NCBI GenBank assembly: GCA_043818675.1
Contig: JBDRFR010000069.1
Coordinates: 14,877 to 78,876, forward strand
DNA: 64,000 nucleotides
Direction of reading: 5' to 3'
Origin: Nanobdellota archaeon
GTDB lineage: Archaea; Nanobdellota; Nanobdellia; Woesearchaeales; DATDXC01
Shown here: positions 1,680 through 31,500 of the stretch, piece after piece
Layout of the letters: each line of letters opens with the position of its first letter
How positions within the stretch are numbered: position 1 is the stretch's first letter
The notes under the pieces: generated by a model
What the model was told of the DNA's origin: nothing
What the model saw: only the letters and a program-made list of their open reading frames with translations
Database searches by the model: none
Position numbers and translations under genes: made by a program

Positions 1680-1808
1680 ATTATGTTAAGATAAAAGGTA
1701 CTATTTATAAATCTTTCGATTTTGTTACCACCTCATAATGATTACAAAATAGGACATTATCAGACAAACTAATCTAATTTAAATATGATAAATTAATTCC
1801 TGATTATA

Positions 1809-5133: not shown

Positions 5134-5200
5134 GGCAAATACATATAAATTACAATATACAACTTAGTATGTACATATATACAACTATAGGTGAGAGGAT

Positions 5201-5704: not shown

Positions 5705-6303
5705 TCAGTGAAATACTGCCGCTTACCAAAAATAAACTTGAGATTTTTAAATATATTTACGAGAAAAAAGGGTCTCATCTTTTGGATATATCAAAAAATC
5801 TAAAAATACACCCTTATAGTGTTCAAAAGACCTTAAAGTCTATTAAGAAATTGTTTGTCGAGAAAAAAGCAGGAAGGACAATTATTTTGTCACTTGATAA
5901 GAACCTTCCAGGTTATTTTGAACTTCTTTATCTAATTGAGGACTATAAGCTTACAATTGATAGTAAAGATTTGAAAATACTGATAAGAAATCTGAAAGAA
6001 TTCTTCTCCAAAGATAAAAATGTGCTAAGTTGTGTTTTGTTTGGGTCATTTGCGCGGAATGTTTCTGGTGAAGATATTGATTTACTATTTTTGGTTAAGA
6101 AGAGATCAGATTATGTTATTGAAAAATGTTCCCAGCTTTCAACATTATTTGGAAAAGAAGTATCTCCTTTAGTCATGTTAGAAAAGGAGTTCAAGTCTGC
6201 TTTACAAAGTAAAGAGCCAACTATTATATCGATATTGGAGCCTTCTCAGCGGCTTTTGGTTGTCGGAAAAGAATACTTTTTGAGGTTTAGTTATGATGGA
6301 TAA
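5701..6303 (+). CDS. winged-HTH + minimal nucleotidyltransferase (MNT, Pol-beta superfamily) protein
   Basis: 'VLFGSFARNVSGEDIDLLFLV' gives the GS...DxD nucleotidyltransferase signature. N-terminal HTH-like region 'LEIFKYIYEKKGSHLLDISKNLKIHPYSVQKTL'. Confidence 0.65.
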   Translation: MISEILPLTKNKLEIFKYIYEKKGSHLLDISKNLKIHPYSVQKTLKSIKKLFVEKKAGRTIILSLDKNLPGYFELLYLIEDYKLTIDSKDLKILIRNLKEFFSKDKNVLSCVLFGSFARNVSGEDIDLLFLVKKRSDYVIEKCSQLSTLFGKEVSPLVMLEKEFKSALQSKEPTIISILEPSQRLLVVGKEYFLRFSYDG

Positions 6304-7225: not shown

Positions 7226-7535
7226 GGAAATTAAAATGAGTAGTAGGCCCGTCTATCCTACTGACCGTATCAAAGGCACGGGGTTCGTCAGGACCTGTTC
7301 CTCAATGAGTAATAAGATTATGGGGCATATAAAATTTTTGGAAAAAATGGATGGATTTAATGTAAACTGTTTAAAGAAAATTATGCCACGATTCTGGGAA
7401 AAAAATGTCTCTATGATGGGAACTAAAATAGGTCTCGATATTGGGAAAAGTTTTGGATTTTTTGAATTGGTTTTAGAGTTTATTAAGGTTGGATTAAGTT
7501 TATTTTGCATAAAAGAGGTTGATTATGGCTGCTAG
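7218..7535 (+). CDS. hypothetical small protein (105 aa) overlapping the start of the giant gene
   Basis: ORF with a GGTGAGG Shine-Dalgarno-like motif upstream. No motifs. It overlaps the giant ORF start by 17 nt. Confidence 0.2.
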   Translation: MVKEIKMSSRPVYPTDRIKGTGFVRTCSSMSNKIMGHIKFLEKMDGFNVNCLKKIMPRFWEKNVSMMGTKIGLDIGKSFGFFELVLEFIKVGLSLFCIKEVDYGC

Positions 7536-10500
7536 TTGGTTGAATAAAGCAGGGAAAAGTAAGGTTTTGGTAGCTTTAGCTTTGTTTTGCTTACTGTTAG
7601 GGATGTTTGGCGTAGGGTTATATAATGTAGGAGCCAGTCAAGACGAACTACTAATTGAAAGAGAGAACTTGATTAATGAGTTAGGGAATTATTCATATTT
7701 ACTAAACACATCACTTAAGATTGATCATATATTTGTTGAGAATTATTCTTGTTCTTCAGTTGGATATCATACTGTTAAGGTTTTGACAGAAGGAGTGCAT
7801 GATCAATTATTTAAGTTTGGTGATGTTAATGCGTCAGCGCATAATCTGGCAACGTATTCATCCAGTATAACCAATAACACGATAATATGGTATCATTTCA
7901 ATAATGATTCTTCTGTATATGAGAATTATGGAACTGAAGAGTTAACTGCAGAAGATAGTATGGTTTTATTATTCCACTTTAACAATGATTCTAGTGTTGG
8001 TGAGAATGATACGCATGTTTATGATTTTTCAGGGAATGGGAATAATGGAACTGTGACAGGTGCTGTTTATAATTCTAGTGGGAAGTTGAATGGAGCGTTT
8101 GAGTTTGATGGTGATGGGGATTATGTTGGAACAAATTTTAATACAGATATCCAGAACTTTACTGTTTCTGTTTGGGCTAAAAGTCTGTCTGCTCCAACAA
8201 CAGGGGGTGTATATACAGCGGTTCTAGGAAGGGAGGAGAATTTTATTATTTACTGGGATGCTACAAGTGGCACATTTGATGCTACTGTTGCTTATAGGAA
8301 TTCAGCGGTTGGATGGACAGCTTCTGATTTTGGTCCTGTAAGTGCGAATGTATGGTATCATATTGTTGGGACTTACAATGGAACTACTTTGATTACTTAT
8401 AGAGATGGTGTTGAAATAGACACTTCTACATTTGGAGTTCCTCAGAGTACTTCTGATATGTTAGCAATAGGGGATTCTAGGGTTGGAGCAGGAAATTATT
8501 TCAACGGCTCAATAGACGAAGTAGCAATCTGGAACAGAAGCTTATCCGCAGCAGAAATAAAAGGCATTTACATGAGAGGGCTACCTGCACATGTTTATGA
8601 TTACTCACAATATAATAATCATATAAAAGCCAACAAAACTGATCCGTTTGAGCCAACCTTTACAGCAGCAGGTAAATATAATGGAGCGTTGGAGTTCTCA
8701 AAAGATGATTATCTAATTAAGGACAATTTCACATTAGTCGGCGGAAACGGAACAATATCATTCTGGTTCAAGCTCAAAAATAATTATGATTCAGCCAAAG
8801 ATAAACATATGATACCTTGGGAATACAGGGAAGATGATACCCCAAATAAAATGGTCATCAGGTTTGACGCAGGGACTGGCCAGTTAAGGCTTATAACATA
8901 TCCAGGTTCAGATGTACTGACAGATTCAGATGCAACTTCTTGGACAGCAGGTGTCTGGCATCATGTTGCATGGGTACATAACACTACCCATACTGTGATG
9001 TATGTAGATAATGTGTTACAGTCTGATGTTGACACAGCAACAGTTTGGTGGAATGACTTTGCAACAGAAAATAGTACGCTGTATATTGGAGCCGAATATT
9101 ATAGTGGAAAAATACAAAGTTACTTCAACGGAACAATAGACGAATTTATGTTATTTAACAGAAGCTTATCAGCAGCTGAAATATCAGACCTTTATGGTGG
9201 AAAAGCAATAACAGGATTGACTATATGGGATGATTCTGATAACAAGAAAGTATACGCAAATTACACTAAATTCTATGCAGACTATAATGACTCAAGCGCT
9301 AAGACAGCCATATACGGCGGCGGAAGATGGTGCGAGTTTGCGTTTAATAAGACAAACCTAGACTGGAGCATATATACCTACATCAATATGACCTTTAACC
9401 CCAACACATTAAGATATGAATTGATAGCCGATGGCGGTTATTTCAATAACCAGACAGAAAAACACATAGATGGTATGCCAGCTGGACAGTATTATTATAA
9501 TATATCCTGCTATGATGAGACTGGAGTTTATCAGAATGTTTCAGTTGTTGATTTTGTTAATGTTTCTGAATATGATACAGGTTTAGGTATTACGACAAGT
9601 GTTACTGCGCCTGATGTTAACCAAAATGTTATTTTTTATGCAAACTATTCAAGAAATGATGTTTGGGATGTTGATAATTGGGTTTACGGTAATGAGATTG
9701 GGAGGGTTGTGTGGAATAGTAGTTCTATAGGTAATGAAAGATATTATGATGCTATCCCGGCAGTGTTTGTTGATTTTGACAACGATGGTAAAAAAGATGA
9801 ATTTGTTATCTCTGATGGTAACTCAGGGACAATATATCCTTTTTATTCAAACGGTTCACAAATGGAATGGACAAACACACAACAAGGATATGACTCTGCA
9901 GAAATATCTGTTGGAGATTTGGATAGGGATGGTTATGAAAATGAGATAGCAGTTGGAGATTGGCTGAGCGGAACAAGTGATGTGATAATAATTAATGAGA
10001 CAGGTGCAACAGTCTGGTCAGCTGTGAGTAATGGACAGCCAATATATGCTATTGAAATTGATGATTTAGAAAATGACGGATCTCCAGAAGTTGTATTCGC
10101 TAAGACTACAGTCTTAAGCGTCTATAATATGACTGGCTCAGAAATTTGGAATTATACTCTGCCAAATTATGCTTTGGAAATAAGAATGGCGGATGTTGTG
10201 GGGAATGAAAATAAAGAGATTATTGTAGCTACTGCTTATGGGGATAAATTGATGGTATTTAATTCCTCCGGTACTAATTTATGGAACTATACTAATGGAA
10301 ATGATCCGATTTCGATTGCATTCGCAGATATTGACCATGATGGTGTTGATAACATTATTACAGGGATGAGGACCGGAAACCAAGTATATGCAATGAATGG
10401 TTCAGGATCTATGCTTTGGGGAGGGAGTAGTCTTAGCGGAGTTGCCGGACAGATAAATGAGCTTGCCACTATGGATTTGGATGGGGATGGGTATGAAGAT

Positions 10501-13500
10501 GACATTGTGGTCGGAGACCAAGCTGCTGTTAAAGGATATGATAACGATTCAACCAATCTATGGAATTTTAATTTACCCTCGGATGATATATCCTCAATCT
10601 CCGTAGGAGACATCGATAGCGATGGTGATAAGGAGATTATTGCAGGGGGCCTTACAGACGGTACAGTATGGGTACTTAATAGAACTGGCAGCTTAGAATT
10701 TAGCTATAAAATTGGAACCGGCCATATTGGAAATACCTTCTATGCAAGCTCTCCATCAACTGATATTTCTGATGTTAATAATGATGGAATAAATGATATA
10801 GGTGTTGGTATCTATCTAACTAGTGATGATAGTTATGGATATATCTTCCAGGACGTCTCCTGCACAATAAAATTCAACGATTCTGCAACTATTTATAACA
10901 TGACATGGGATTACGTTACTGACAAATGGAATTACTCAAGAACGTTTTCGAATAATGTTGTCTATGCATATAATGTAACCTGCAGTAAAGGTGGCTATGT
11001 AACTCAAATCCAGGAATCAACAGTTGATTTAACACAGACCTTAATAATATGGGACGACTCTAACTCAAAAGTAACATATGCAAATTACACCAAATTTTAT
11101 GCAAATTACACCAAATCAAACGGAACCCCATTGACAGGCAGCGGTGAATGGTGCGAGTTTGCATTCAATAAAACAGGCCTTAACTGGAGCTTTTATACCG
11201 CCTATAACATGAGCTATAATCCAACTACAAAATTATACGAGATAATTGCTGATGGCGGCTATATTAAAAATAACACAGAATCGCATATTGGCGGGATGCC
11301 TGTTGGCAATTATAGCTTTAATATTTCCTGCTATGGCGGCAAAAACTTAACAGCAACAGACACAGTAAATGTTGCTAAGTATGATACAGGTTTATCTTTA
11401 ACACAGTCAAATGTTCATGCTGATATTAACACAGATGTTGAGTTCTTTGCTAATTACACAAGAGATACTGTATGGAATGTGGACAACTGGTTCAGAGATT
11501 CAGGAGAAATTGGCAGAGTTATATGGAATAGCAGTGATGTTGGAAACAGTCTTGTTGCACTAAGACCAGCTGACTTATCTAATGACGGATATCTGTCTGA
11601 TATAGTTACAGTAAATGACTACAAGATTATTGCACACTATCAAAACGGATCAGTAAGGTGGACTTTTTCAACTGGAGTTATCCAACAGGCAGGATCCTTA
11701 AACATTGTCAATCTGGATAACGACGGATTTAAAGATGATATAATTACAAAATTCTCTTATAACATATTTGTCCTTAATAAGACTGGTGATCAACTAAACA
11801 AAACAACTGTTGCAGACGGCGGTTGGGGAATTGGAGTTGCTGGTGATGCAAATAATGACGGAATAGAAGATGAGTTAGTAGTATCAGGCGTAAATTCTAA
11901 TCCGGCAATATTATACAATATATCTAACAGCGGACTTTCTGTTGTTAAACAATGGAATTTTTCAGTACCAGATGATATGAGGGAAGTAATATTCGGAGAT
12001 TTTGACTCAGACGGTTTGGATGATGATTTTGCAATTAGTGGAGTTGATTCAGGAAAAGGAACTTATGTTTATAAATGGAACGGGACAAATTTATTTAATG
12101 TAACTTATGGTGGACTTGCTATTGCCAAAGCTGATATTGACCATGATGGTTTTGAAGATGATATAGTGATTGCAGAAAACGGCAATTATCTTGTTTATTC
12201 TTTTAATGGAAGCTATAATACAAAATACACAAGCACAGATGAAGCAATGGTATACAATACAGATCCAATATCAGTATCCGCAGAGATGATTGTACTGGAT
12301 TTGGATTCAGACGGATTTAATGATGACATCATACTGGGAGATAGAGGCGGAGCAGCTGGACCTGGAATTGTCTGGGCATTTGACAACAATAGTATTGGAT
12401 TGTGGAATATCACATTACCTGCAAACGGAGATGATGATTACATCTATTCCATGGTCGTTGATGATTTTAATAACGATGGTAAACAAGAATTGATCTTTTC
12501 CAGTGAAGAGTTTGATAAAGTTTATGTTGCCAATCTGTCAGGATATGTACTTTGGGACCAGATCATTGGACAAGGAGATATCTCAGTGATTAAAGGAAAA
12601 TCTCCTGGCATCATAAGTATTGACATAAATAAAGATGGAATTTCTGATTTTGCGACCGCTTCCGCAAATGGTTTTGTCCATGTTCTGCAGGACGTATCCT
12701 GCACAATCCAATATGAATCAGAAGGTGGAGAGATTAACAGGACTGGTCAGAATTGGGAAAATGGTTTAGTTGCTCTATATCATTTTAATAATGAGTCTGC
12801 ATATGGCGAAACAACTGTTGGAGTTAATAATGTAACGTATGACTTTGCACCAGGTCACTGTTATGATAACGAAACAGAAATACTAACTAATGAAGGCTGG
12901 AAATTATTTTCAAAATTAAATAAAACTGAGCAAGTAGCAACATTAAATCAGGAAACAAAAGAATTGGAATGGCAGCATCCAATGGAATATCAAGAGTTTG
13001 ATTATGACAATGATATGTATAAGATTATATTGGAGGATGGATCAGATTTACTTGTTTCAGAAAAACATAGGGTTTATGGAAAATCAGTAAGCATCATCGT
13101 GATGAGTGAAATCTTCAAAGATGATCTTATTTTCTCTGACCTGGAAAGTCAGGACAAAATGCCCCACATGAACTCTTTTGAGATGGCTCAAATCCCCTTT
13201 GAGGTTCTTAAGGTGATTGATGGTGACAATATCCATTTCAGAAATTTGGATAATTTTTCTACTCAAAGCTTTGAAGAGAACAGGGTCTTTTCTCTTAATC
13301 TTGATCAGAGCCTTATCAATCTTGGAAATGTCAATATTCATAATTCATCCAGCCACTTTTTTAGTTCTTCGGGAGTCATTGCCTTGCCTTTAGCTGGGTC
13401 TTTAGATATTTTCTTTAACTTTTCTATGAACTCAGGCTTCATAGGAAATTCATCTAATGGATGCCAGTCAATAGATTCACAAAACTGCTCATCTTCCCTA

Positions 13501-16500
13501 GTTAGTTTCCTTGATACACGAAATTCTTCAAATATTCTTCGCTTGTTCAATTCCTCTCTAGCTGCTTCAGACCAGTTTATCCATGGAAATGCTTCAATTC
13601 TTGCCTTAAAGGATTTGTCTACAGGATATATTATACTAGCCATTTATAATTCACCCCTTGCCCTTAATTTTTCTAATGCTTCTAATTTCTTAAGCACACC
13701 CTGTTTTGCAACTTCAGACCAATTAATGTCAGGATGCTTGTCTAACTTTGCCTTAAAATCATCAGGTACTGATATAGTAAACCTTTCCATTTTTGATGCC
13801 TCCTGGATGATACAAGATAATAAAATTTTGGGTTCATCCAACAATTGTATTACTAAACACAATTGTGTTTATAAATCTTTTGATAATTTCAAGTTGATGC
13901 CTATAACTGATGCGTATGGGCTAATCAATTCAGGAAAACAGGTTTATTTCCTGGATGGTTTTAATAATGAGGTTAAAGTTAAGTCGATTGTTAAAGAAAA
14001 GTACAATGGCAGAATATATGATGTCGATGTAAAAAATGATGTTGTTTTGGTAAGAAGGATTGATAGGAATAATCGCACAAATAATTATGATAAAAAAGCC
14101 ACGCAAGCAGGAAAAAATTCATGCCACAATTCTGGGAAATATTGTTATGATAAAAGGACTAAGGAAAACTTCTTTTCTGAAAATGAGGATGGTTTGGGTA
14201 TATTGAGTGAGAGGGGTTATGAAACTAATTATTATGGTATATGGTCTGGGAATAGCAATAACGGAACTATTTATGGTGCTACAGTTGATATGACTGGTGG
14301 GAAGTGGAATGGGAGTTTGGAGTTTGATGGGGCGGGGGATTATGTTGATGCTGGAGATACATTTGATATGGGAACAAATGATCTGTCATTATCTGTATGG
14401 TTTAAAACATCTGATAGTGGTTCAAAAATTAAAACAATTATTTCAAAATCTTATGCATGGGATACAGGTGCATATAATTTGATTATTACTGCTGGTAATA
14501 ATCTAAGACTTCATGCTGAGAATAATACTGGTCAGGGTGAAGTAGATATAATAAGTCCTCTAACTTATACTGATGGACAATGGCATCATGCAGTAGGTAT
14601 TTTTGATAGAGATAAAAATGCAATATTATATGTTGATGGATCTGAAGTTGGTTCAACAACAATGGCAAATATTCTTAATCAGGATCTGGATACTACCTAT
14701 TCATTTAGAATTGGAATGTCACATTGGAATAGTTGGCCCAGACCTTTCAACGGCTCAATAGACGAAGTTGCAATTTGGAACAGAAGTCTTTCTGAATCTG
14801 AAGTCTGGGACTTGTACATGTCGTCAGCACCAAAATATAACATGACATGGGACTATACAAGAAAGAAATGGAACCATACAAAACAGTTCACTTCATACGG
14901 TAATTATACTTACGGAATAACATGCGAAAAAGGCGGCTACACAACCCAAAGAAGCTCAAGTTATGTTGATCTAACCCAATCATTAACAATATGGGATGAT
15001 TCTGATTCAAAAACAGCCTATGCAAATTACACCAAATTTTATGCAAATTACATAAGATCAAACGGAACAGCAATGAACGGAAACTATTGGTGCGAGTTTA
15101 AGTTCAATAAGACAGGCAGATGGACAAAACCAGTCAATATGAGCTTTAATCCAGTAAGCTTACAATATGAAATAATTGCTGATGGCGGATATATTCAGAA
15201 TTCAACTGAAACGCATATTGACGGGATGCCTACTGGAAATTACAGTTACAATATCTCCTGTTATGGTGGTGAATATAAATCACTAACAGATACTGTAAAT
15301 ATAGCAAAATATGATACTGCACTTGCTTTAACCCAAACAAACATCCATCCAAATACCTATTCAGATGTTGAGTTCTTTGCTAATTACACAAGGGCTACTG
15401 TATGGGATGTAGACAACTGGTGGTGGGATACAACTGAGATTGGGAGGGTGGTTTGGAATACAAGTGCTCTTGGAGGGAGTTCACATACTGTTGATTTCTT
15501 TGATTGTTTGAATAGTGGAAAGAAAAATTGCCTTGCGACCACAGAATATTCTGATATCTGGATGTTTTATCCAAATGGAACACAGATTACAGCATCTGGA
15601 ACTGCCTCAAATCCAGGAGGAGATTTATTAGATGCTAATGTTTTTGACGGAGATGGAGATGGTTATGAAAATGAGGTTCTTATTGTTGGAGATAATAATC
15701 AGGTTTTAGTTGTTAACGAGACAAGAAATACTGTGTATACCTATACTGCTGGAGGAGATATTTTTTCTGTTGTTGGAGCTGATTTAGATAACGATGGAGT
15801 CAAAGATGATTTTGTTATTGGTGCTTATACTGGGTCTGTTTATCAGGTCATGGCATTTAATACTTCTGATGGAGTTAATTGGGTGAATTTTTGGAACGGA
15901 ACTGTTGGAGGAGTTATTCAGGAAATGGTTATTGGTGACTTTGATAGAGATGGAAGGGAGATTGATGTTGCTGCTACAGGGACTTCGAATGGAAATGTTA
16001 CTGTTTTTGTTGGGGATAATGGAACATTGATATTTAGTACTGTTGACCTTGGGGCATTATCTTCACTTACAGTGTCTGATTTGAATCATGATAATTACAA
16101 TGATGAGATAATCGTGGGGGAGACGGGTGCCACTAGGGTTCTTGCGTTTAGGTGGAATGGGACATGGGGAGCAGAAATGCAAGATACAGACAATGATACT
16201 AATGGTTGGCTTTGGTCAAACACTCTTCCAACATACAGTATTACTGAAATTGATACTTTTGATGCAGATTTAGATGGTTACAAAGATGAGATTATTTTTG
16301 AAGATGGAGGCAGTTCATCAAACTCAAAAATTTGGGCAGTGGATGAAGAGGGCAACTACTTGTGGAATTTTACATGGGGGAACACAATTGATGTTTCATA
16401 TAGTCTTAATGTTGCTGATGTGAATAACGATGGAAAGGATGAGATAATTTTTGGACCTAGGAATGCTGCTACATTGTATGTTTTGAATATCTCTGGAGAT

Positions 16501-19500
16501 TTATTGTGGAGTTATCCTCTTAATCAGGGTTGGATTGGTAATGCTTATGGAACTTCTCCAGGGATAGATATTTCAGATTTGAATAATGATGGTATAAATG
16601 ATATTGTAGTTTCAACTAATACTGTGGGTTATAAATATATTTTCCAAGACGCTAAATGCTCAATCCAATACGAATCAGAAGGCGGGGAGATTAACAGAAC
16701 AGGTCAGAATTGGGAAAATGGTTTAGTTGCTTTATTTCATTTTAATAATGAAAGTGCATATGGCGAAAACAGCAGCTATATTTATGATTTCTCAGGTAAT
16801 GATAACAATGGAAGTTGTACAGGTACAACATGCCCAACCTTTGATACAACTAGTGGAAAGTGGAATGGTAGTTTTGAGTTTGATGGCGTGGATGATTATG
16901 TTGCAATGTCTCAGGATGATAGTCTAAATTTTTCAGGAGATAGTGAGATTACCATTTCCTTTTGGGCTAAACTTGTATCAGCAGATAATAGGCATGCTGT
17001 TATTGGGGCGTGGGATGGTGAGTCTGGTTCTACTTCTGCTTATCTCTATATGGACAATTCTGGAGCTAATGGAATTATTATCAAGAATACAATAGGAGGT
17101 GATACTGGAATTAGAACATCAAGCACATCTTTTAATTTAAACACTTGGTACCACATAGTTTATACTTTTAATGGTGTCTTAGAGACAGTCTATCAAGATG
17201 GCACTCAAATTGATACAAATGATATAAGTGGAACCATGCGTAATAATGGTGAGACAGGTCCTTGGGTAGGTCATGCAATGAATGATGGAACAACTCCAGT
17301 ATATTTCAACGGCTCAATCGATGAAATCGCAATCTGGAACAGATCATTATCCGCATCAGAAGTTTGGGATTTGTATATGTCATCAGCACCAAAATATAAC
17401 ATGACATGGGACTATACAAGAAAGAAATGGAACCATACAAAACAGTTCACTTCATACGGTAATTATACTTACGGAATAACTTGCGAGAAAGGCGGATATA
17501 CAACTCAAAGAAGCTCAAGCTATGTTGATCTGACTCAGTCATTAACTATATGGGATGATTCCGATTCAAAAACAGTCTACGCAAATTACACCAAATTTTA
17601 TGCAAATTACAAAAGATCAAACGGAACCGCATTGAACGGTAATTATTGGTGCGAGTTTAAGTTCAATAAAACAGGTATATGGACAAAACCAATCAACATG
17701 AGCTTTAATCCGGTTTCCCTACAGTATGAGGTAATAGCAGATGGTGGATATATCCAAAACTCAACTGAATATCACATTGACGGTATGCCAAACGGTTATT
17801 ATGGGTATAATATAACATGTTACGGTGGTGATTATAAATCATTAACAGATATGGTCAATGTTTCTTTATATAATACAACTTTGGGAGTCAGCAGGAATAA
17901 TCTTGCGCCAGAGGTGAACGTTGTTACAACATTTTATGCAAACTATACAAGAAATGATGTATGGGATGTTGATAACTGGAAATTGGGACATGAGATTGGG
18001 AGGGTTGTTTGGAATACTAGTTGTCCAACATGCGGCAGTGTTTCTGCTATACCTGAATTTGTAGACTTCAATGAAGACGGTAAGAAAAGTGAATTATTCA
18101 TTCTTGCTGATGGTTTCCCTTATGCTATTTCAAGTAATGGTTCTAAGATCTGGACAAGTTCAACAGAGAGATATGTTCCTAGCCAAGCAGTAGCTTTTGA
18201 TGGAAATGGAGATGGATATGATAATTATGTTGTTGCAGTTGAGGATGTAAATTCTGGTTCAGGTATACGTGTGTATAACAGTACAGGGAATATCATTTGG
18301 GAATGCGGCTTTCCCGGAGACTTTATGTCTGTTGTTGCAACTGACTTAGATAATGATGGAAAGAAAGATGATTTTGTTGTAATTGATACATATACTCCTG
18401 TGGGTAATGTTTCCGCATATACTACTACTAACGGGCAAACATGGGTGATTAATTGGAGCCATATATTTCCAGCGACTAATACCGCAGATGGATCTATTAA
18501 GATAGGAGATTTAGACAACGATGGAAAAAAAGATGATTTTGCAATTGCAGGTGTGGAATATACGATTGCCCTAAATGAAACTGGAGGCGTTATATGGAAC
18601 ACAACTGACTTAGTTGATAGAGTAAATGGTGTTGGAATTGGAGATTTTGACCATGATGGTTATGAAGATGATGTGATTGTAGGGAATAGGGGATATTTAT
18701 ACATCTTCACTTTTAATGGAACTTATGGAGTTACATATACTACAAATGATGCAATTGCATCTTCTTCCTACCCTAACAGTGGAACACAATCAACTGTTAC
18801 TAGTATAGTTGTATTTGATTTGAATAATAATGGATTTAAAGATTCATTTGCTTTATCAGACATAACATATGATTCCATAGGTGTTTTTGACAACAATACT
18901 AATAATGTTTGGTTCCACAATACAAATGATTTTGGTGATGGAAGCATAGATGTAAATACTGTACGGGCAAGTGATTTTAATAATGATGGCAAAGATGAAC
19001 TGATGTTTGGTGCAGATAACGGGCTTATATATATTTTTAACAGCACAGGTTCTCTTTTGTGGAAATATGTTTTGATAGATCACGTGGGGGAGTCTTCTAG
19101 AGAGGATGCCGTTAAATCAGGCGACATCAATAATGATGGAATCTCTGATTTTGTAGCTGTCACTGTGAATTCTTACACTTACATATTCCAAGACGTATCC
19201 TGTTTCATAAGATTCAACGATTCAACATCAGTCTACAACATGACCTGGAACATAACTTTAGACAAATGGCAGTACCAAAGGACATTTCCTGACGTATCAA
19301 GATATAAATACAACATCACCTGCTCAAAAGGCGGATACATTACACAGTTTACAAACACTTCTTTTGCAACAGAAGACGGAAACCCAAGATGGAGTTCAAA
19401 TAAGACTAACCTAACAAGAAATTCACCATATTTAGCAGATGTCCATTTCAACATTACATTAAATGACATCAATCCAGCATCATACATATTCAGCTGGTAT

Positions 19501-22500
19501 AATGGGACTGCATGGGAGAATAATTCCCCTGTAAGTTATGATGATAATACAGAAATCTCTGTTACAAAAACATTAAACATAAGAAACGAATCTGCTGCTA
19601 TCAGCTGGACATTCTACTTTAATGATACTGTTGGAAATAATAATCAAACAGATGTATGGAGCATTACAGTTGATAATATACTGCCAAGGATAGATTATTC
19701 AGGTGGAACTAACGCAGATGGCGAAAACATAGCTAAAAATTATATTTATGTCAATGTATCAGTTACAGAAGAAAATGTTGATAAGGTATGGTTTAACCTG
19801 TACAATGATGATTATTCTTTGAACAAAAGCATGATACATGGTGAGTTACCAAATTATAGACCTGAGACTTATATTAATATGACCGGCAATGTACTTTTAA
19901 TGCATTTTAATAATGACAGTTCTGTTAGAGAGAATTCAACACATGTTTATGATTGGTCAGGTATGGGGAATAACGGGACTGTTTATTTTAATTCATATCC
20001 AAACCTAACAAACCCTAAGCTTGGTTTAGGAGCATTTTCATTTGACGGAACTGATGACTTTATCAATATATCTGACGTTCCATCATTAAGGTTAACTTCG
20101 ACAGGTACAATATCTATGTGGATCAAACAAAGCGGTGCAGACCAAGATCCATACGCTACATATGTAGGAAAAACCAGGGGTGGTGTGACAGCTACAATTG
20201 CATATATTCTTTACCATAGAGATTCAGAAGGTACAATTAGGGGAACTATCTGTAATGATGCTAACTGTGACTTGATCCAAACACAGGAATTTGCTCAATC
20301 AGATGTTGATTGGCATCATCTGGCATTTACATGGGACAGCGTAAACTTATCTTTATATAAAGACGGCATTTTGTTTAATAAGACCCCTCAAACCCGAAGC
20401 GTAGATAATGATGCAGGAGATCATCTCAAGATTGGCGGATATGGTTTCAATGATGTGGGAAGTGATGATTTCAGCGGTTTAATGGATGAGGTTGCAATCT
20501 GGAACAGAAGCTTAAGCGCAGATGAAATAAGAGACATATACGAGATCCAGAAATCTGCATATTACCATAACTTTACAGTATCAGACGGAACATATCATTA
20601 CAATGTTACAGTCAATGATACTTCTGGTAATCAAAATGTTACAGCAACAAGAAGTGTTTCACTGGATCCAACTTATCCTAAAGTTTCATTTGTCTCTCCA
20701 ACTTATAGTGATGGTAAGTTTACTAAGAATACTTCTATTCCAATAAATGTAACAATAACAGAAGCTAATCTTGACAGGATAATATATGAATGGGATGGTG
20801 TTAATGAAACAGACTTCAAGCTGGATGCGCCAATAACTGAAGTAAACTTTACAGTCTCAAGCTTAGAAACTTTAACTGTAAGTAACGGTTCCCATAAGAT
20901 TGATCTGTTTAATGATAGTTCTCTTGTGTTGGCTATGAGTTTTGATAATTTGTCTGCTCTTGGAGAGAATGATACTCATGTGTTTGATTGGAGTGGGGGT
21001 GGGAATAATGGGGCTGTTTATGGAGGAACTGACGCTGATTCTGGTTTCACAACGAGCGGGAAATATTCAGGAGGACAGATGTTTGATGGGGAGTGGGATT
21101 ATGTTTTTGTTAATGATTCAGATGTATTCAGTGGAAATTTGGCGATATCTTTATGGATAAATGCAAAACAATGGAGTACAGATGGAACACTGGTAAGAAA
21201 ACTAGATGAGTGGCAATTAGATATTAATGATGGTACTGTGGTTAGATTTTGTGATACTGCGGCATGTAGCGATATTGCTACTTCTGAATTGAGTTTAGGT
21301 AAATGGTATCATGTTGTGGGAATTAGAAATAGTTCTGGAGTAGAGTTATTTGTAGATGGGATAAGTCAAGGATATGTTGCAGACCCAATTGCTTCAAGAA
21401 CAACTAGTCATGTTTATATTGGTGCAGAGGAAGGAGCGTTTGACTTTTTCAACGGCTCAATAGACGAAGTAAGAATCTACAATCGTTCTCTTTCTGCCTC
21501 AGAAGTTGCAATGCTTTACAAATCTAATCTAAGAAAATACGACGTAAACAAATATAATTTATTTTTCAACCAATCAGGAAATTTCAGTTTAACCTACAAC
21601 ATTAATCAAAACACAACAATCAACCTAAGAAAAAACAGCACCAGAAACTACTGGCTGGATATCAATAAGCAAAGTTTAGCTGATGATTCCTACGCTTACA
21701 GAGTATTTACAAAAGACGACATGCAAAACTGGAACAGCACAGAGCAAAGAACAGTAAATGTTGACCTGGAAAGCAGGATTGTATTAGGCGATGACTCAAA
21801 CAACAAAAAAGTTTATGCTAACTACACAAGATTCTATGCAAACTTTACAGATGTTGAAAACAATACAATAAACGGTTCAGGGTATTATTGTGAGTTTGCT
21901 TATAATAAAACAAACCTGGCATGGAACAGATATACAGTAACAAACATGAGCTATAATCCAATTACAACACAGTATGAAATCATAGCAGATGGTGGATATA
22001 TACAAAATGCAACAGAGAGTCACATTGATGGAATACCTGTAGGACTTTATTATTATAATATAACATGCAAAGACTCAAGCGGGGGCTACACAGCAATCTC
22101 AACTGTTGACCTTGTTAATGTTTCTGAATATGACACAAACATAGCAGTAACCCAATCAAACATCCATCCAGATACAAACGCAAATATCGAATTCTTTGCA
22201 AACTATACAAGGGATACTATGTGGGATGTGGATAACTGGTGGTGGGATACTAAAGAAATCGGAAGGATTGTGTGGAATAGTAGTGAATATGGTGCGCTTT
22301 CAGATACTGTGTATTTTGTTAAGGCTATGGACTTAGATAATGATGGAGAAATGGATGAAATTGTTATAGGGGGTATACCCACCATGGAAGCTTTTAGTTC
22401 AAATGGAAGCTGGATTTGGTCAAAAGCCGTTCATAATTATGATACACATTTTGAAGTATGGGATCTAGATAACGATGGCTATAAAAATGAAATCTTAACA

Positions 22501-25500
22501 GGAACAAATGGGGGCGATGTAAAAATTATTAATGAATCTAGTGCAAATGTTGCAGTATGGAATAGTTATAGTTATGGGAGTAATGGGGGGACTATGATAT
22601 TAGGAGATCTAGATAATGATGGATTTAAAGATGATTTTGTAGCTGTAATAGATACAGGCAGCGTTAGAAAAATTCTTGCTTGGAATACCTCAGATTATGT
22701 AACCTGGGTCAATTTTTGGAATTATAGCCTTCCTCATGACATTTATATAGATCAATTAATAGTATCTGACTTGGATGGTGATGGGGATGATGATATCGCA
22801 GGCTCGGTCACTGCAAATGATCCAAGATCGTATACGTTTGCCTTAGTAGGACACAATGGATCCGTACTTTGGAATACCACATCCAATTATGACCAACTTT
22901 GTTATTCATTGATTGCTTTAGATATGGATCATGATGGACTTAAAGATGATATAATTACCGGTTGCACAGGAGATATACATAATTTTAGTTTAAATGGAAC
23001 TTATGGAGCAACATATACTCCTTCGTTATTTAATAATTCACCAACTGGAAATATTTTAGAAATAGCAGCGATTGATTTGGACAATGATGGATATGAAGAT
23101 GAGATTATTGTAGGTGATACAGGAGTTTATAACACTGGTCCAGGATATGTAAGAGCTTTTAATAAAAATGGAATTGAAGAATGGAATTTTGAATTGCCTC
23201 CCACAGGTATTGCTGATGGGGACGATATTGCATCGCTGGTTGTGGGAGATGTGAATAGTGATGGGAAAAAAGAAATAGTGTTTGGTAATGAACAGCTTGA
23301 TACAATTTATGTTTTAAACAAATCAGGATCATTATTGTGGGAATATAAAATTGGATTAGGTAATATCGGATCATCAAGCGATGAATCACCAGGTATTGAT
23401 CTGACTGATATCAACAACGATGGTATTCTTGATATTGTAGCTAGTTCACTAACAGGTTATGCACACGTTCTTCAAGATACAACATGTACAATTCAATACG
23501 AATCAGAAGGCGGAGAGATAAATAAAACAGGAACTAATTGGGATGATGGACTTGTAATGTTAATGCACTTTAATAATGAATCAGCATACGGTGAAACAAC
23601 AGCCGGAATTAATAATGTAACATATGACTTTTCAGGTAATGGCAATAACGGAACAATATATGGTGCAACGTTTAATGCAACCGGTGGTAAATGGAACGGA
23701 AGCTTTGAGTTTGATGGGATTGATGATTATATTGAATTAACAGATATGAACATTAATGATGAATTCACAGTTTCAATGTGGTTCAAAGCTAAAAAGTTAC
23801 AAGACGGCGCTACTTTAATTGGTGATTTGGACAATATTGGAGGTAATGAGGGTTGGTCCATAAGATACTTAACTTCACTAGGTAATGAATTGCACTTCAG
23901 TTTTGATGGAACTACATGTGGATGGACCAATTACGACCTTACTGGGATTAATCCGGATAATGACAACACTTGGCATTTTATTTCTGTTGTCTTTACAAAC
24001 AATACTGTCTCTTGGTTTTATGATGGAACTACTGAAGTTGATAGTCACAGTCAGCAATGTGTAGTTGAAGATTCTAATGAGAATATCAAAATTGGCGTCG
24101 CTTCCAGAGATACTTTCCCAATAAGTGCAAGCGGACACTTCAACGGCACAATCGATGAAGTAGCAATCTGGAACAGATCATTATCAGCTGCAGAAGTTTG
24201 GGACTTATACATGTCATCAGCACCCAAATACAACATGACATGGGACTATACAAGAAAGAAATGGAACCAAACAAAACAGATAACGACATACGGCAACTGG
24301 ACTTATGGCATAACATGCGAGAAAGGTGGATATGTAACCCAAAGAAGCTCAGGTTATATTGACATGACTCAATATTTGACAATATGGGATGATTCTGATT
24401 CAAAAACAGTTTATGCTAATTACACTAAGTTTTATGCTAACTACACAAGATCGAATGGAACTGCATTGAACGGTAACTATTGGTGTGAATTTAACTTTAA
24501 TAAAACTGGAATTTGGACAAATCCAGTCAATATGAGCTTTAATCCAACAACAACACAGTATGAAATAATCGCTGACGGCGGATACATACAGAATTCAACA
24601 AAAACGCATATTGACGGGATGCCGGTTGGAAATTACAGTTATAATATAACATGTTATGGTGGGGATTATAAGTCTCTAACTGACACAGTTAATATTGCTG
24701 AGTATGACACAGTTTTATCAATACTTAATGATACAGATAAAACTGTTGGAGAAAAGATAAAATTCTATGCTAACTATTCAAGAGTTGACCCATACAAAGT
24801 AACTAACTGGAAATTAGGTAAAGAGATTGGGAGGATTGTTTGGACTGATAATTTAACAACTGACACAGAATTGATATCTATTACGTCTTATGATATGGAT
24901 AAAGATGGAAAAAGAGATGAACTTGCAGCTGCGGTAAGGGATCAAAATACCGGAGAATTAGCCTATTTTTATCCAAACGGTACATATAAATGGATCTATT
25001 CAGTTTCCTGGGATTTTACAGAGAGCATATTTGCAGGAGATTTAAACGATGATGGTTACTATAACGAGATATATTATCCAATGGTGGGTGAACCCGCAAT
25101 ATTTAATGAATCAGGAGACCAGGTGTGGACAGGCAGCATCACTTACCCGGCAATGCAGTTTGAGGGAGCCTTACTTCTGGATATTGACGGAGACGGACAA
25201 AAAGATGATCTGGTTGTGGTAAATGCTACTGGTGTGTTTGCATATAATACATCTGATGGGATTACCTGGCATAATTTATGGAACTATTCTCACCCAATCA
25301 GTCTTGGCTTAAACAATCTGTGGGATGCTGCTTCAGGAGATCTGGATAATGATGGTAGAGATGATATTCTGTTGGGAACATATCTCCCTCCCAATTTATA
25401 TGTGATCAATTCCACCGGTAGTCAAATGTGGAATTATTCCTACATACAATACGGACTGGCAGTTGAATTGATAGATCTTGACAGTGACGGCAAAAAAGAT

Positions 25501-28500
25501 GAAGTTATCCTGGGTAGTCTATATCAAATTATCCATGGTATAAATGGGTCTGGCGGACATCTGTGGAACATATCTGGCGGAAATCTCAGGCATTATGAAC
25601 TTAATGTTCTTGACCTGGATGATGACGGATTTGAAAATGATTTTGTTGTAGGTGATGCCAATGGAAATGTCACAGCATATAATGCTTCTCTGACAAACCA
25701 TGACATGATGTGGTCAATTGATCTAAACGGGGTAGGGGCTAATGATATCTATTCAGTTTCAAATGCAGATATAAATAATGATGGAATAAAAGAAATTCTA
25801 GTGGGTGGAGAAGATGCAATTTTATGGGTTTTAGATAAGTCAGACGGAAGTGTCCTGTGGGATTATACTGTCGGAACAGGAGACATTGGATCAGGGGCTG
25901 GAAAATCCAGAATAACAACCACAGATATAAACAATGATGGAATAAACGAGATTATTGTGGCATCACGAACAAACGCACAAATCCACACCTTCCAGGATGT
26001 AAACTGCATCATAGAAATCAGCGACGGAACATCAGCTGACATGAATTATAACTCAACCTCCAGAAAATGGGAATACAATAAAACATTCATTATTGCAGCT
26101 GACTACGAATATAATGTAACCTGCACAAAGGGAGGATATACTGAACAGGTACAAAGCTCTACTTTATCAGTTGCAAGCTTAAGGACATATCATCAGCCGT
26201 CAGCTGTTTATTCAAACTATACAAGGTTTGTCGCTAATTTCACTGAAGGCACTGGCAAATGCAGGATGAAATACAATAAGACAGGCATATGGAGCAGCTG
26301 GCATAACATGAGCTGGAATGGGACGATAAACGCGTTTGAGCTTGAAGCTGACAATGGGTATAGAAGAGGGCATATGCGCTCAATGCCGGCCGGAACTTAT
26401 GACTATTATATTGACTGCAATAACTCTTTAGGCCAGGCTGTAAATGCAACAGATTCGATAACTGTAAATGATTATGATACAAACCTATCAATATCAAACA
26501 CTAATAATAATCCAGTTATCGACCAACCTATCATTTTCTATGCTAACTATTCAAGAGTTGATCCATACAAAGTAGATAACTGGAAATTAGGAAATGAGAT
26601 TGGACAGGTTGTATGGAATACAAGTGATATTGGCACAAATGCAAATGCGATCGCAGCCATTGACCTGAACAATGATGGAAAGAAAAATGAGTTAATAATA
26701 GTAATGGACAGTGATATTACTGGCTTGTATGCAAATGGCAGTGAGAAGTTCAGCCAGACTTCTGGCATAGGTAATTCAATCTTAGATATAGCTGTTGGTG
26801 ATTTTGACAATGATGGTTATGAAAATGATTTTGCAATTGTAAGAGGCGCAAGCACCCTCGAGGTGTTTAATGAAACAGGCCAGGAAGTATGGGAAAGCGG
26901 CGATTACGGATCTACGCCTGCAATACCGGCTATAGGAGACTTTGATGGAGATGGCATCAAGAATGATTTCTTTATGATGGATGGCGGAAGTGTTTTTGTT
27001 TTTAACTCAACAGAAGGAAAGGTTTGGAGCGAGAGATGCAGCATTACGCATGGTGCCAACGTTTATGCTGGATATGATGCTATAACAACTAGAATTTATG
27101 ATTCATCTAAAGATGATATAGTTTTTGTTTCCAGTGAGAATAGTGCAACACCTGGCATTTGGGCGATTAATACATCATCTATTGGAACATGCAAACAATA
27201 TTATAATGGTTCAGGGAATTTATTTAGATCACTTGATGTTCTGGATATTGACCATGATGGAATTGAAAATGAATTTGTTGTAGGTGAAAATGGAGATGTA
27301 CTTGTATTTAATTTAAGCTTAGATATAATCCTTAGTGATTCTACACCTGATGATAATATTTGGGAGATCAGAAAAATTGACCTGGATAATGATGGATTTA
27401 AGGATGATTTTGTCGCTTCAGAAGATAATCCTCCAAGAATCAGGGCGTATGATAATAATTCTGATTTGAACTGGACATTTAATACTGGCGAATCTGCAGG
27501 AGTGTCTATCTTTTCGATGGAAATAGCTGATGTTAATAATGATGGAATAGAGGATATTTTATTTGGAACAAGCACTGGTATTGTTTATGCTGTTAATATT
27601 AGTGGAAACTTAATGTATAAATATGATATTCAATTAGGAACAATCGGAAATGACAACTCAAGAGCTTCATCAACAGACATCTCAGACATAAACAACGACG
27701 GAATAAATGATGTAGCAGTTGCATCCTTTGATGGCTACGCACACATCCTTCAGGATTCATCCTGCACTATAAAATTCACAGACGGATCATCATACAACAT
27801 GACCTGGAACATAAGTAAAGACAAATGGCAGGCAAACAAATCATTCAGATTAGCAGGGACATACAGCTACAATATTACATGTAATAAAGGCGGATACATA
27901 TCACAAAACCTAACTGCAAGCATTACAGCTGCAAAACAAGGTTCATTCTGCGATTGGGGAAGCTTAGCTACAACATGCCATATTAATACAAGCATAACTG
28001 TAAAGAATAACTACCAATTAAACGCATCCAACATAATAATCCATGAGCTTGGAAACCTATACAATAATTCAGGCATAAGCTTCATAATAAATCTAACCGG
28101 AAACCTAACAATAAAAAGCAGCGGAACAATCAATTTATCCGCAGCAAACTGCGCAAGCGGAACTTGCACAAACGGCGGAAACCTGACAATTATTGCATCC
28201 ACATTCAACCTAAGCAGGGGTTCATTTATTTATTCCAATGGCGGCTCTTTAACATCTGATGGAACCAAGGGTGGTAGTGGAGGAATAATAAATATCACAG
28301 CCAGATCATTCTATTTTGACGGAAATATAACATTAGATGGTGGAGATAATGCAGGAACATACAGTACTGGAGATGGAGGCATAGGTGGCACCATGGTTAT
28401 AGATGTTAATACCAACCTTAACATAGGTGGTAATCTGCTTGGAAAAGGCGGAACCGGAAGATCAAACATCTGCGCTGCAAATAGCGGCAGCAGGGGTAAT

Positions 28501-31500
28501 GGTGGTAAACTGATAATTAATGAAAACAATCTTAACCTGACAGTAAACGGAATTATTGACTTGCCTCCTGGAGAAAGAGGATATTGTGCAAATGGCACAT
28601 TTGGTGCAACTGACCTAAACATAAATACCTTAACTGTAAGCCAAAATGGGCAGCTTAAGATTGGAGGAACAATCAACTCATCAACTATAACCATAAGCGG
28701 TATTTTAGGACCAAAAGAAAGTTTGGGCGGAGACGGCAGGGTAAGCAGAAATAACGCTAGTGAACTGACAATCCTAAGCAATGTTTTAAATTTAACTTCA
28801 GGTGGAATAATTACAGGCAAAGGCCAAAGTGAAACAAACAACCTTGACTATTATTCAGGAACAGGTGCCACAATAAACATTTCAGTTGCAACCTTCTATT
28901 TTGATGGAAATATATCGATCGAAGGCGGAGAAGACTCAAGCGGAAATACTAACGGCGGAGGAGATGCAGGAATTTTGTATTTGGATGTGAATAGTAATTT
29001 GATTGTTAATGGAAACATTTTAGCAGATGGCGGAGTTGGAAGACCAAATGTCTGCGACAGTACAACTACAGGACATAGGGGGAGTGGTGGAACAGTCATC
29101 ATTAATGAGCCAAACCATAACATTAGTTTAGTAGGTCAGATTATTTCAAATAGGGGCACTACTGGACTTTGCGATGACGGCTCCGGCGGAACAATAAATA
29201 TCACAGCATCAGTATTAAACATAACAAACAACATTGAAGCAAAAGGAAACATCTCAGGAAATATTAACCTAAAAGCAGTCAGATTATACATTAACTCAAC
29301 ATTAAACGTAACCTCGGAAACAAATGACCAAAACGGAACAATAAGGATAACTTTCAAAGACAACTTCAACGCAACATATTCAAAGATTGAACCGGTTACA
29401 TACTTAGAAAGAAACACAACAGATGGAATGGTTTCTTTCTTACAATCATTTAACAGAAGATTAAACTCTACAATCCCGTATGAAAACGCAATAACTATAG
29501 CTTACAACAAAATAAACATTAACTCCACGAAATACAAAGACTTAAACAAGTCTGCCGATATAAAACTCTACAGCGCATTCGTCGGCGATATCAGGTTATT
29601 AAAAGACGGATTATTATGCACCTCCTGCAATCTAAAGGATTACTCGTTAGGCACTGCATACTTCAACGTAACATCGTTTACCAACTATTCGATAATCGGC
29701 AACACTACTTTAGTCTTATTTGATTCAGAGTATGATGTTCACCCGTTAAGCAATAACCCGATTATTTTCCAAAATGAAGTGGCCATATTCTACGCAAACT
29801 ATACAAGAAACAACGATAGTATTATTCTAACCGATGCAACTTGCGTTATTTACTTTAACGACACACAATCATGGACAGCTATGAGTTATAAGCCTGATAA
29901 ACAGTTGTTCTCGTATAACAGGACCTTTACAGCTGGCGGCAACTACACATGGAACACCAGCTGCGGCAGATCAGACTATTTAACCCAGTCAACAGAAGAT
30001 AACATATCAATCTCCGCTAACACCCCTCCTGTAATAAACTCTGTAAATATTACTATCAACAACAGTCTTTCAACTTTAGCCTATACTAACTCAACCTTAA
30101 ACTGCATGTTTAATATTACCGATATGGACGAAGGAGAACTTGTAAGAGCGAATATCACCTGGTTTCGGAATTTAGGTGATGGTTATATCCCCTGGACAAT
30201 GGACAACGAAGACGAGATTACCATAACACACAATATCTCGATGAACACAACATCAGGCGACATTGAGCCAGGCAAAACCAACCACAGCGACAGCTGGATC
30301 TGCCAGGTTACAGCATACGACTTATATAACGGCACCTCAATAACAAACTCCTCACCGTTGACAATCCAAAACTACAGCACTGTTTTAGTAATCTTTGACG
30401 AAGAAACAGACATTGAACAGCACAGGCGCTCAAACACAAGCACAATCTACAAGTTCCAGAACACCTCATTTTATGCTAATTACACCTTAAACCATCAGAT
30501 CATAAATCCTGCAATCTGCAGTATCTATTTCAACGATTCAGTAAGCATCAACATGACATACAAAGACACCCTATATTATTATAACAGAACTTTTACAAAA
30601 GGCGGCAATTTCACATTCAATATTACGTGTAAACGGTTCAATTACACAACAAAGACCAACTTTAGCTGGCTATGGATAACCTACAACTCATCACTAAGCA
30701 TCTTTGACCAGGAATCAGACGAAGAGACCAACCTATTAAGCAATAATGAGATCTACCAAAACGAAAACAGCTTTTTCTACGCAAATTATACAAGGGACGA
30801 TGATAACGCAACGATTACACAAGGCAATTGCACTATCTCTTTTGATGACAAAAAAGCCAACATGAGCTACAACACAAGTTTGCAGCTATTCACATACAAT
30901 AGGAGTTTTGCAGTCAGGGGCACTTATACTTGGTCAATAAATTGCACGACTAAAGGCTACGAGCAGGAGAACAAAACTTCCAGTATAACGGTTCTCTCTG
31001 CCGAGTTTGAGCATATTTATATTACACCCGAGATAGCATACAGCTCTGACAATCTGACTTGCATAAACACTACTGTAACGAATCAGGGCTCGGAAAATTA
31101 TACATTGGTCTATGAGTGGTTTAATGACGACGTTAGGATTGCAATTCTGGATTTAGCTTCCGATGGATCGGTAACACGTAACAACCAGGGCCAGGGAGCT
31201 GCATCTAATGCAATCGACAACAACCTGGCAACAGTTTGGCAGACAGACGAATTATCACTTGGCTGGATAAAGTTCACATTAGATAATACAAGAACCATCG
31301 GCAAATTAGACTATACGTTTAACGGTTCTGGCAATAGGGATAATTTCAACATATCATATTCAACTGACGATTCCACCTACATTACATTATACAGTTCACT
31401 GTCCGACCCAGGAAACGAGGTTACAATAACAAAAACCTTCGACCCTGTAAACATGAGGTATATCAGAATTGATTTCAGGAGCGGCTCGACCCAGGAATTT

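Follow-up and report, generated by a model that had tools for sequence, protein, structure and literature searches.

How a single reading frame can run without interruption through DNA whose opposite strand carries a complete operon is the question raised by a giant archaeal surface-protein gene in the 64,000-nucleotide (nt) window analysed here (positions 14,877 to 78,876 of contig JBDRFR010000069.1, assembly GCA_043818675.1, from a Nanobdellota archaeon; coordinates below are those of the window). The plus-strand open reading frame (ORF), at 7519..43815, encodes 12,098 residues. An original prediction had placed an intein within it, with an antisense toxin–antitoxin (TA) cassette at the position that a homing endonuclease would normally occupy. 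Our analysis confirms this observation and supports the interpretation placed upon it, with errors in details only. The element is probably a mini-intein that holds an antisense TA operon, is spliced out as protein and is protected by a TA module that penalises its loss.

The intein comprises 465 residues encoded at 12859..14253 on the plus strand and read uninterrupted from Cys1 (TGT, 12859-12861) to the terminal Asn (14251-14253), as delimited by the HINT fold and the family alignment. Its translation begins CYDNETEILTNEGW...VSEKHRVYGK, passes through about 260 residues rich in S, N, L and F, resumes as NFKLMPITDAY...GRIYDVDVKNDVVLVRR and, after a further 57 residues, ends in YYGIWSGN/SNNGTIYGAT, where the slash, here and below, marks a junction. 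The N-terminal splicing half (12859..13083) contains block A, CYDNETEILT, and block B, VSEKHRVY (13054-13077). Within the latter, VSEKH (13054-13068) has Ser replacing the Thr of (T/S)xxH, a feature kept in relatives. The C-terminal half up to block F occupies 13885..14058 and includes the pattern IYDVDV..D.VLV.R, which is invariant across relatives. Alignment of the intein family reveals conservation of C1 (Ser1 in one locus, L022), SxxH, IYDVDV and WSGN/S, the last being present in 55/60 unique related inteins.

That these flanks are Hint-like, as had been proposed, is borne out by the predicted fold and by the relatives. In hidden Markov model (HMM) searches the N-terminal half of the window's element matches Hint_2 with E=2e-4, the best Intein_splicing match among relatives has E=8.8e-7, and PF14890 is among the precomputed annotations of the relatives P0021 and P0029. 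The family halves, joined as if spliced and made into a profile, match the AceL NrdHF and MJ0781 KlbA inteins. In an AlphaFold (AF2) model of the full 465-residue segment, built from alignment A2, the predicted local distance difference test score (pLDDT) is 74-87 for intein residues 1-76 and 73-86 for residues 342-404, and falls to 21-29 in the antisense-read insert. Comparison of the model with the PDB using Foldseek gave inteins, BIL or Hedgehog HINT domains as 50/50 of the matches listed, with gp41-1 at the top (E=6e-4, prob 1.00). No nuclease family was matched by the plus-frame translation in a family HMM search, and PF13385 and PF14890 are the only domains annotated in close relatives. 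Searching with the plus translation retrieved proteins of the same architecture (P0021, P0024, P0029, P0030, P0033, P0034 and others), together with many LAGLIDADG inteins that match the N-terminal half only. By sequence and model, the element is a class-1-type mini-intein (Cys1 ... Asn/Ser) without a homing endonuclease.

The C-terminal splice junction had been misplaced at SCHN/S. This candidate is ruled out: the relatives P0029 and P0033 lack the segment that contains it and read VVLVKRHNSSMIWSGN/SNN, from which we conclude that the true junction is WSGN/S (14253/14254). It is predicted to lie in the feature at 14230..14256, which comprises block G, YYGIWSGN, and the +1 Ser (14254-14256). 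The decoy 'SCHNS' sits in a K/N/E-rich, lineage-specific F-G insertion of about 57 residues (14059..14229, plus strand), and the F-to-G distance is 228 nt in the window as against 60-63 nt in P0029, P0033 and many loci. This insertion contains neither a minus-strand ORF nor a tRNA, and it has no Rfam match; for the intein element as a whole there was no tRNA, and Rfam gave sub-threshold snoRNA noise only. Variable linkers resembling the insertion are also seen in P0021 and P0024.

The site of insertion is equally well defined. As had been claimed, a repeat with uninterrupted paralogues is interrupted: the intein splits the LamG motif DFSGN/GNNGT in one repeat of the giant gene, directly 3' of the N-extein sequence NNVTYDFAPGH (12826..12858, plus strand). 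Five paralogous sites in the same gene (DxSGxGNNG, at 8023, 16786, 19951, 20986 and 23626) are free of inteins. The closest of these empty sites, NNVTYDFSGN/GNNGTIYGAT, is at 23611..23670 on the plus strand, the uninterrupted paralogue reading NNVTYDFSGNGNNGTIYGAT at 23611. In P0021, P0024 and P0030 the insertion site is identical to that of the window. The last three intein residues, SGN (TCT GGG AAT, 14245-14253), mirror the host SGN (TCA GGT AAT, 23632-23640), and the catalytic Asn may be derived from, or a mimic of, this host motif.

Between blocks B and F, the three minus-strand ORFs originally described are indeed present, abutting one another at 13084-13341, 13338-13643 and 13644-13862, and both GC and AT skew are inverted across 13100-13860. 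The ORF at 13084..13341 is a gene for a RelE/YafQ-type toxin of 85 residues and runs codon-aligned antisense to the plus frame. Its product matches the NCBIfam YafQ model TIGR00053 with E=3.4e-9, as foreseen for a RelE/ParE-like toxin; the score of 37 bits is below the equivalog cut-off of 87, so the superfamily assignment is supported and the YafQ equivalog is not. The match to Pfam ParE_toxin is weak (E=0.03), and a profile of the toxin and 20 homologues matches Methanocaldococcus (M.) jannaschii RelE3 (PDB 3bpq) with E=4.4e-5. These 20 homologues (47-71% identity, 84-91 residues) are called as separate genes, and P0013 and P0017 carry PF05016. The window's toxin has no exact-sequence match in a collection of 15 billion proteins.

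The toxin start is overlapped, through ATGA, by a gene for an antitoxin-like protein of 101 residues (13338..13643, minus strand). This protein has a ribbon-helix-helix (RHH)-like N-terminus and a DUF2683-like C-terminus (weak match, E=2.5e-4), and its homologues in L001 and L003 belong to Pfam RHH_12. The remaining gene (13644..13790, minus strand) encodes a 48-residue RHH protein (MERFTISVPDDF...) with weak matches to VapB_Sulfo (E=5e-5) and RHH_1 (E=0.02) and an RHH_12 orthologue in L001 that is 69% identical. The 48-residue protein and the N-terminus of the 101-residue protein are paralogues, as suspected, with 35% identity (E=5e-7). This gene had been thought to begin at 13862; the TTG at that position was dropped on the grounds of orthologue length and the Shine-Dalgarno site, and the most likely start is ATG 13790, as in homologues. 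The Shine-Dalgarno sequence GGAGG (13799..13803, minus strand) is 8 nt upstream of this ATG, with GAGGTG in the same place in L001. An operon of 48-residue RHH_12, ~100-residue RHH_12-like protein and 85-residue toxin, with the same abutting arrangement and ATGA overlap, is found in L001 and L007, and a two-gene form in L003-L006.

On the minus strand, two palindromes, ACAATTGT (13841-13848) and CACAATTGTG (13858-13867), are putative RHH operators, read on the plus strand as NNCI..HNCV. A putative promoter consists of the TATA sequence TTTATAAA (13868-13875) and the purine-rich AAAAGA (13876-13882), which resembles a B recognition element (BRE); its plus reading is V-Y-K-S-F. The palindromes are kept in L001 and, as KHKC/HNCV, in P0023 and P0025-P0027, and DNA similarity between the window and L001 extends across the promoter. 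A GAAAG-TTTAWATA element is located upstream of the first nested gene in 39/51 related inteins, mostly at -30 or else near -55, the -30 spacing being consistent with leaderless transcripts. The conserved plus-strand peptide [VI][YF]K[SGP]F is this promoter element read backwards.

Comparison of the window with homologous cassettes reveals which strand is constrained in its protein sequence. Substitutions are concentrated at the third positions of minus-strand codons; between the toxin genes of the window and L001 the differences at positions 1/2/3 number 10/16/41. Conservation is 71% for the minus-strand proteins as against 45% for the plus read-through, a pattern that demonstrates purifying selection on the minus-strand proteins. 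The possibility that the plus-strand insert is a real domain was ruled out: it has no family matches, its pLDDT is at the low values given above and its conservation is below that of the minus-strand proteins. Nor is the S/N/L-rich segment a conserved extein domain in the relatives, in agreement with the original prediction; it is poorly conserved, is flanked by Hint halves and has no confident predicted structure, and the only constraint detectable on its translation is the lack of stops. The cargo at the endonuclease position is, by these features, a type II TA operon of three minus-strand genes, equipped with a putative BRE/TATA promoter, palindromes and a ribosome-binding site of its own.

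The arrangement is not peculiar to the window. A metagenome scan with a mini-intein profile gave 79 loci, ascertained on blocks B and F only, and mapping of blocks A, B, F and G yielded 67 B..F pairs, 60 of them unique. In 51 unique inteins the B-F insert is 650-2000 nt long with both blocks in the same frame; 50/51 have no plus-strand stop, against 11-99 stops in the other plus frames. The remaining locus has a single stop, and a further three loci, not counted among the 51, are frameshifted and represent two distinct sequences. Each insert holds 2-8 minus-strand ORFs. Pfam analysis of 122 unique nested ORFs of at least 60 residues identified PIN_2 in 31 (down to E=8e-29), DUF433 in 17, DUF5615 in 14 and ParE/RelE in 5, together with other PIN families. 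The related cassettes are always antisense, and TA operons are the sole type of protein cargo met. The relatives are of DPANN taxonomy, and JGI, ENA and NCBI together supply more than 50 independent contigs that show the arrangement. Cassette-free mini-inteins also belong to the family (L008, L009, L039/L041 and L156), and in L039, L066 and L156 cassettes occur in the A-B or F-G loop. Inteins whose halves share 75-89% identity may differ in their cassettes or have none, so that cassette turnover is faster than intein divergence. The cassette of L089 lies inside a different, canonical intein (Intein_splicing E=9e-22).

Is the host frame open by chance or by selection? Across 13084-13863 it has no stop in 260 codons, the ~780-nt stop-free stretch that had been reported, and the other two plus frames have 20 and 28. 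The estimate of a chance probability below 1e-6 stands for composition alone, where we obtain 1.3e-7; once the minus-strand proteins and the codon usage of the host are taken as given, the probability at this locus is about 2e-5 to 3e-4, and in this respect the claim went too far. Host codon usage was chosen as the reference in place of synonymous permutation within the cassette, which has no power for a codon-aligned toxin (P=1). The toxin gene accounts for nearly all of the conditioned probability: it runs antisense in codon register with the plus frame and contains no TTA, CTA or TCA; its own probability of leaving no plus stop is between under 2e-4 and 6e-3. Among its Leu codons CTC (host usage 2%) appears three times and TTA never, and the 72-residue ORF at 13644-13862, in the other phase, uses TTA for 8/12 Leu.

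The two phases differ greatly in their propensity for stops. The permissive antisense phase holds 90/101 nested ORFs; there a plus stop needs NNT/TAN, NNC/TAN or NNT/CAN, and a given protein is stop-free with 5-100% chance. The codon-aligned phase, in which TTA, CTA and TCA become plus stops, holds 9 nested ORFs, all RelE-type toxins, with a stop-free chance per gene of at most 2e-4 to 6e-3. RelE-type toxins occupy this phase because the ATGA overlap forces it. Openness is reached by two routes: two of the genes lie in a stop-poor antisense frame, and the toxin, in a stop-prone frame, has been purged of TTA, CTA and TCA.

As a control, genomes were scanned for the toxin, giving 80 loci, mostly in metagenome-assembled genomes of Woese-, Pace-, Nano-, Aenigmat-, Micr-, Iain- and Altiarchaeota. 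In 45/86 genomic toxin copies, presumed free-standing, there are 1-12 such codons and hence antisense stops; the remaining 41/86 have none and are inside antisense ORFs of 135-2957 codons. For sixteen copies the surrounding antisense ORF exceeds 400 codons; roughly 11-12 of these copies are near intein motifs, as counted from motif matches and a reading of the flanks at eight loci. An intrinsic antisense openness of the whole toxin family, suggested by the first seven loci, was refuted by this genome scan. The avoidance of TTA, CTA and TCA in the toxin and the open frames of 50/51 related inteins support the view, put forward in the original prediction, that selection keeps the host frame open.

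The reading that we consider probable joins these elements as follows. The host ribosome would translate across the cassette, the HINT halves would fold round an unstructured loop and splicing would remove all 465 residues, the predicted ligated junction being ...VTYDFAPGH-SNNGTIYGATVDMTGGK. Splicing would render the insertion phenotypically silent for the host protein and make the intein a safe harbour in a compact genome. The operon would be transcribed convergently from its own promoter, and the toxin would be released whenever the intein was lost, as could happen through gene conversion with any of the five intein-free repeats. Addiction-based retention would in this way replace endonuclease-driven homing. 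An addiction module that stabilises the intein, or hitch-hikes in it, is plausible.

A number of points weigh against this reading. The basis for the addiction role is analogy with TA modules on plasmids and chromosomal integrons only, and splicing, expression and toxicity are inferred from sequence for all family members. Taken alone, the window scores slightly under the curated Hint cut-offs: intein_Nterm reaches 22.5 bits against a cut-off of 24.5, Hint_2 22.3 against 28.4 and Intein_splicing 19.1 against 35.8. Block G belongs to the low-confidence part of the AF2 model. The penultimate residue is Gly throughout the family instead of the usual His, and the Chlamydomonas ClpP intein, which also has a penultimate Gly, reportedly splices poorly in Escherichia (E.) coli. 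The summed log10 P of -101 over the 51 inteins overstates the significance, because the loci are phylogenetically related and not independent. Finally, L099, L136 and L090 contain stop-free antisense RelE cassettes in giant ORFs with no detectable intein, so that splicing-out appears helpful for tolerance and not strictly required.

The last of these points also counts in favour of the view that the cassette is a passenger only. The intein, or a tolerant loop of a surface protein, would be a harmless landing place, the TA genes would give the intein nothing, and selection would remove stop-bearing insertions. A typical PIN/antitoxin cassette in the permissive frame would be stop-free without adaptation in 5-40% of cases, and tRNA-like genes, which are incapable of addiction, use the same intein loops. 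We nevertheless judge this view unlikely: nearly every endonuclease-free family member has at least one TA cassette (51 unique large-insert inteins against a handful without), most of the nested toxin copies in long antisense ORFs (the roughly 11-12/16 above) are near intein motifs, and the protein cargo consists of TA operons with no other small operons.

Distinctly less probable is a HINT domain that no longer splices. The insert would then be inert or self-cleaving, the 465 residues or two halves would stay in the protein, and openness would matter only for the 9,800 residues downstream. The splicing residues argue otherwise, Cys1/Ser1, the block-B His, the block-F Asp, the terminal Asn and the +1 Ser being kept in ~55/60 unique relatives; moreover, the site is the most conserved LamG motif, where 465 unspliced residues would probably disrupt the fold. 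Against this must be set the penultimate Gly in place of His, the sub-threshold Hint scores, F-G insertions that range from 57 to about 340 residues and the tolerance of cassettes at non-intein positions.

We regard as very improbable a regulatory device in which convergent, RHH-autoregulated transcription of the cassette tunes or switches the giant gene through interference or antisense RNA, an idea that would be compatible with the spliced-out, addiction-protected intein. The cassette promoter does oppose host-gene transcription, palindromes extend across the TATA box and the predicted start of transcription, a cassette-internal terminator is not evident, and about half of the related loci have the toxin stop codon within block B. 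The many TA families with different regulators found at the site, however, speak against a tuned host function, and cassettes are gained and lost among close relatives. The notion that the minus-strand ORFs are shadows of an S/N/L-rich extein domain, or that the locus is an assembly chimera, has only the a priori rarity of such overlaps in its favour and can be dismissed in view of the separately called toxin homologues with RelE/YafQ matches, the PIN_2 matches among relatives, substitutions that track the minus-strand codon phase, the number of independent contigs and the low pLDDT of the plus-strand insert.

The mini-intein with its protective, spliced-out TA operon may be one instance of something broader, on which our opinion is evenly divided. 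Endonuclease-free inteins of DPANN-type giant surface proteins would be gene-capture platforms, whose A-B, B-F and F-G loops accumulate and exchange stop-free, promoter-bearing cargo that is spliced from the protein, the TA genes making the intein effectively undeletable. The cargo in this scheme would comprise sense-strand tRNA-like genes as well as antisense TA operons from three or more families. If true, these would be composite selfish elements of a new class, and no natural case of whole operons kept fully antisense in a prokaryotic ORF would be better supported.

Several observations were made on the cassettes and inserts of related loci. Sense-strand tRNA-like genes of 83-90 nt are present in the A-B and F-G inserts of related inteins, with none in the window: L064 645-729 and 1944-2027; L009 6849-6932; L084 5041-5129 and 6916-7005; L062 2393-2476; L076 4936-5018; L026 8842-8925; and L031 2455-2538. 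ARAGORN assigns the anticodons GAA, GAT, GAC and CAA, and with the Rfam tRNA model, whose gathering score is 29, the genes reach 38-58 bits. The intein frame runs through them without a stop, the predicted peptides being like AGMAEWxTQSxDT...GSIPxxS. In about half of the related inteins (e.g. L010 6211-6216) the toxin ORF ends in a TAA that reads, on the other strand, as part of the conserved Val-Tyr codons GTT TAT of block B, and the toxin gene therefore abuts and overlaps the catalytic intein block.

Arrays of cassettes also occur. L007 (= L102, NCBI JAZDLQ010000062.1) has at 1101-6647, minus strand, an antisense ORF of 1,848 codons that runs through ~5 tandem TA cassettes (RHH_12 with RelE or PIN_2) and ends in an intein C-terminal half, ...RIYDVTVPNHIILVRRGNLTAWSGN/S, fused to a Laminin_G_3 protein; it looks like a cassette array within one intein, possibly decaying. 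An array of 3 cassettes is found in L040. Intein-flank relics are carried by L001 and L003-L006. In L001 (455-1321) and L003 (4236-5372) the antisense ORFs remain open though gene callers see free-standing cassettes, and the relics kept there are DSKKHKVYAKV and ...GLSEAKTAKGLEILFL; these two cassettes are probably remnants of decayed intein hosts. The nested RelE cassettes with no detectable intein are at ~2169-5468 (minus strand) in L136 and 3561-6260 in L099. The two cassettes in L136 are flanked by 3 copies of a ~25-residue host repeat, FLSDFIPGATSKEKEYxSFxDITNKV, an arrangement that points to duplication upon insertion or else to spreading through tandem duplication.

The giant protein itself ends in a HerA/FtsK-like P-loop ATPase (42505-43000, within 41413-43812; DUF87 E=8e-12, HerA_C E=6e-10), apparently after a hydrophobic segment, as read from the translation. 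A separate HerA-like gene lies at 56097-58421, and the genes near the giant ORF include aRF1, HerA and a Cdc6-like gene, neighbours that point to an archaeal source, as does the DPANN taxonomy of the relatives.

For the study of overlapping genes, the family would be a well-supported natural case of promoter-bearing operons fully antisense within a prokaryotic frame, with a two-strand selection signature, purifying on one strand and stop avoidance on the other. It suggests that inteins may have a second way of persisting without a homing endonuclease, through alliance with an addiction module, and offers an answer to the question of why mini-inteins survive. The family also indicates that inteins tolerate 260 to more than 650 read-through residues at three loops, a property that intein engineering, or the concealment of antisense cargo in synthetic constructs, could exploit. 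Gene callers prefer the giant ORF and can miss nested TA genes, and TA inventories of DPANN archaea may therefore be underestimated.

Like the LAGLIDADG and HNH inteins, the window's intein has a HINT fold, class-1 junction residues, a conserved host motif as its site and foreign DNA in the B-F loop, and the N-terminal half of LAGLIDADG inteins is detectably homologous to its own. It differs from them in that the cargo is an independent three-gene operon with its own putative promoter on the opposite strand and not an in-frame domain, and in that the plus-strand product of the cargo DNA is without confident predicted structure; with no nuclease, no homing mechanism is evident. The operon in turn resembles type II RelBE and YafQ-DinJ operons (e.g. 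M. jannaschii RelBE3, 3bpq) in having a small RelE-fold toxin after an RHH-type antitoxin gene, an ATGA overlap and promoter palindromes, and presumed free-standing toxin copies with antisense stops exist in the same archaeal lineages. Unlike these operons it has three genes, including the extra 48-residue RHH protein, lies wholly within another reading frame and has a codon usage shaped by stop avoidance on the other strand.

Promoter-bearing TA cassettes are reportedly stabilisers of sedentary chromosomal integron arrays, as work by Szekeres and colleagues of 2007 and that on the Vibrio superintegron is said to show. Integron cassettes and those of the intein family have in common several TA families, one orientation, a fixed platform and sometimes arrays (~5 in L007/L102, 3 in L040), and the TA cassettes of integrons are thought to prevent platform loss. 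No integrase or attC is seen here, however, and the cassettes sit in a protein-coding intein, a platform that has to keep its frame open. Genes nested in eukaryotic introns, and the antisense homing-endonuclease genes of some group I introns, likewise place opposite-strand cargo in a segment that is later removed, sparing host function. Removal of the intein is, unlike that of RNA introns, at the protein level, so that the host strand of the cargo DNA has to be translated and kept free of stops.

In the Rpn/RpnS genes-within-genes TA systems (PMC10327210), the toxin gene itself also yields the antitoxin, through internal translation on the same strand and in the same frame. These systems share with the window a TA module that overlaps other coding sequence, whereas the window's genes are complete and antisense to an unrelated host ORF. 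TA or any other genes nested antisense in inteins are not described in the full-text literature searched, which covers few subscription journals, in keeping with the lack of precedent noted in the original prediction. We likewise know of no precedent for antisense genes in inteins. The parts, a HINT intein and a RelE-type type II TA operon, are known; it is the composite that seems new, with a cargo that is not an endonuclease domain fused to the intein and not a cassette lying between genes.

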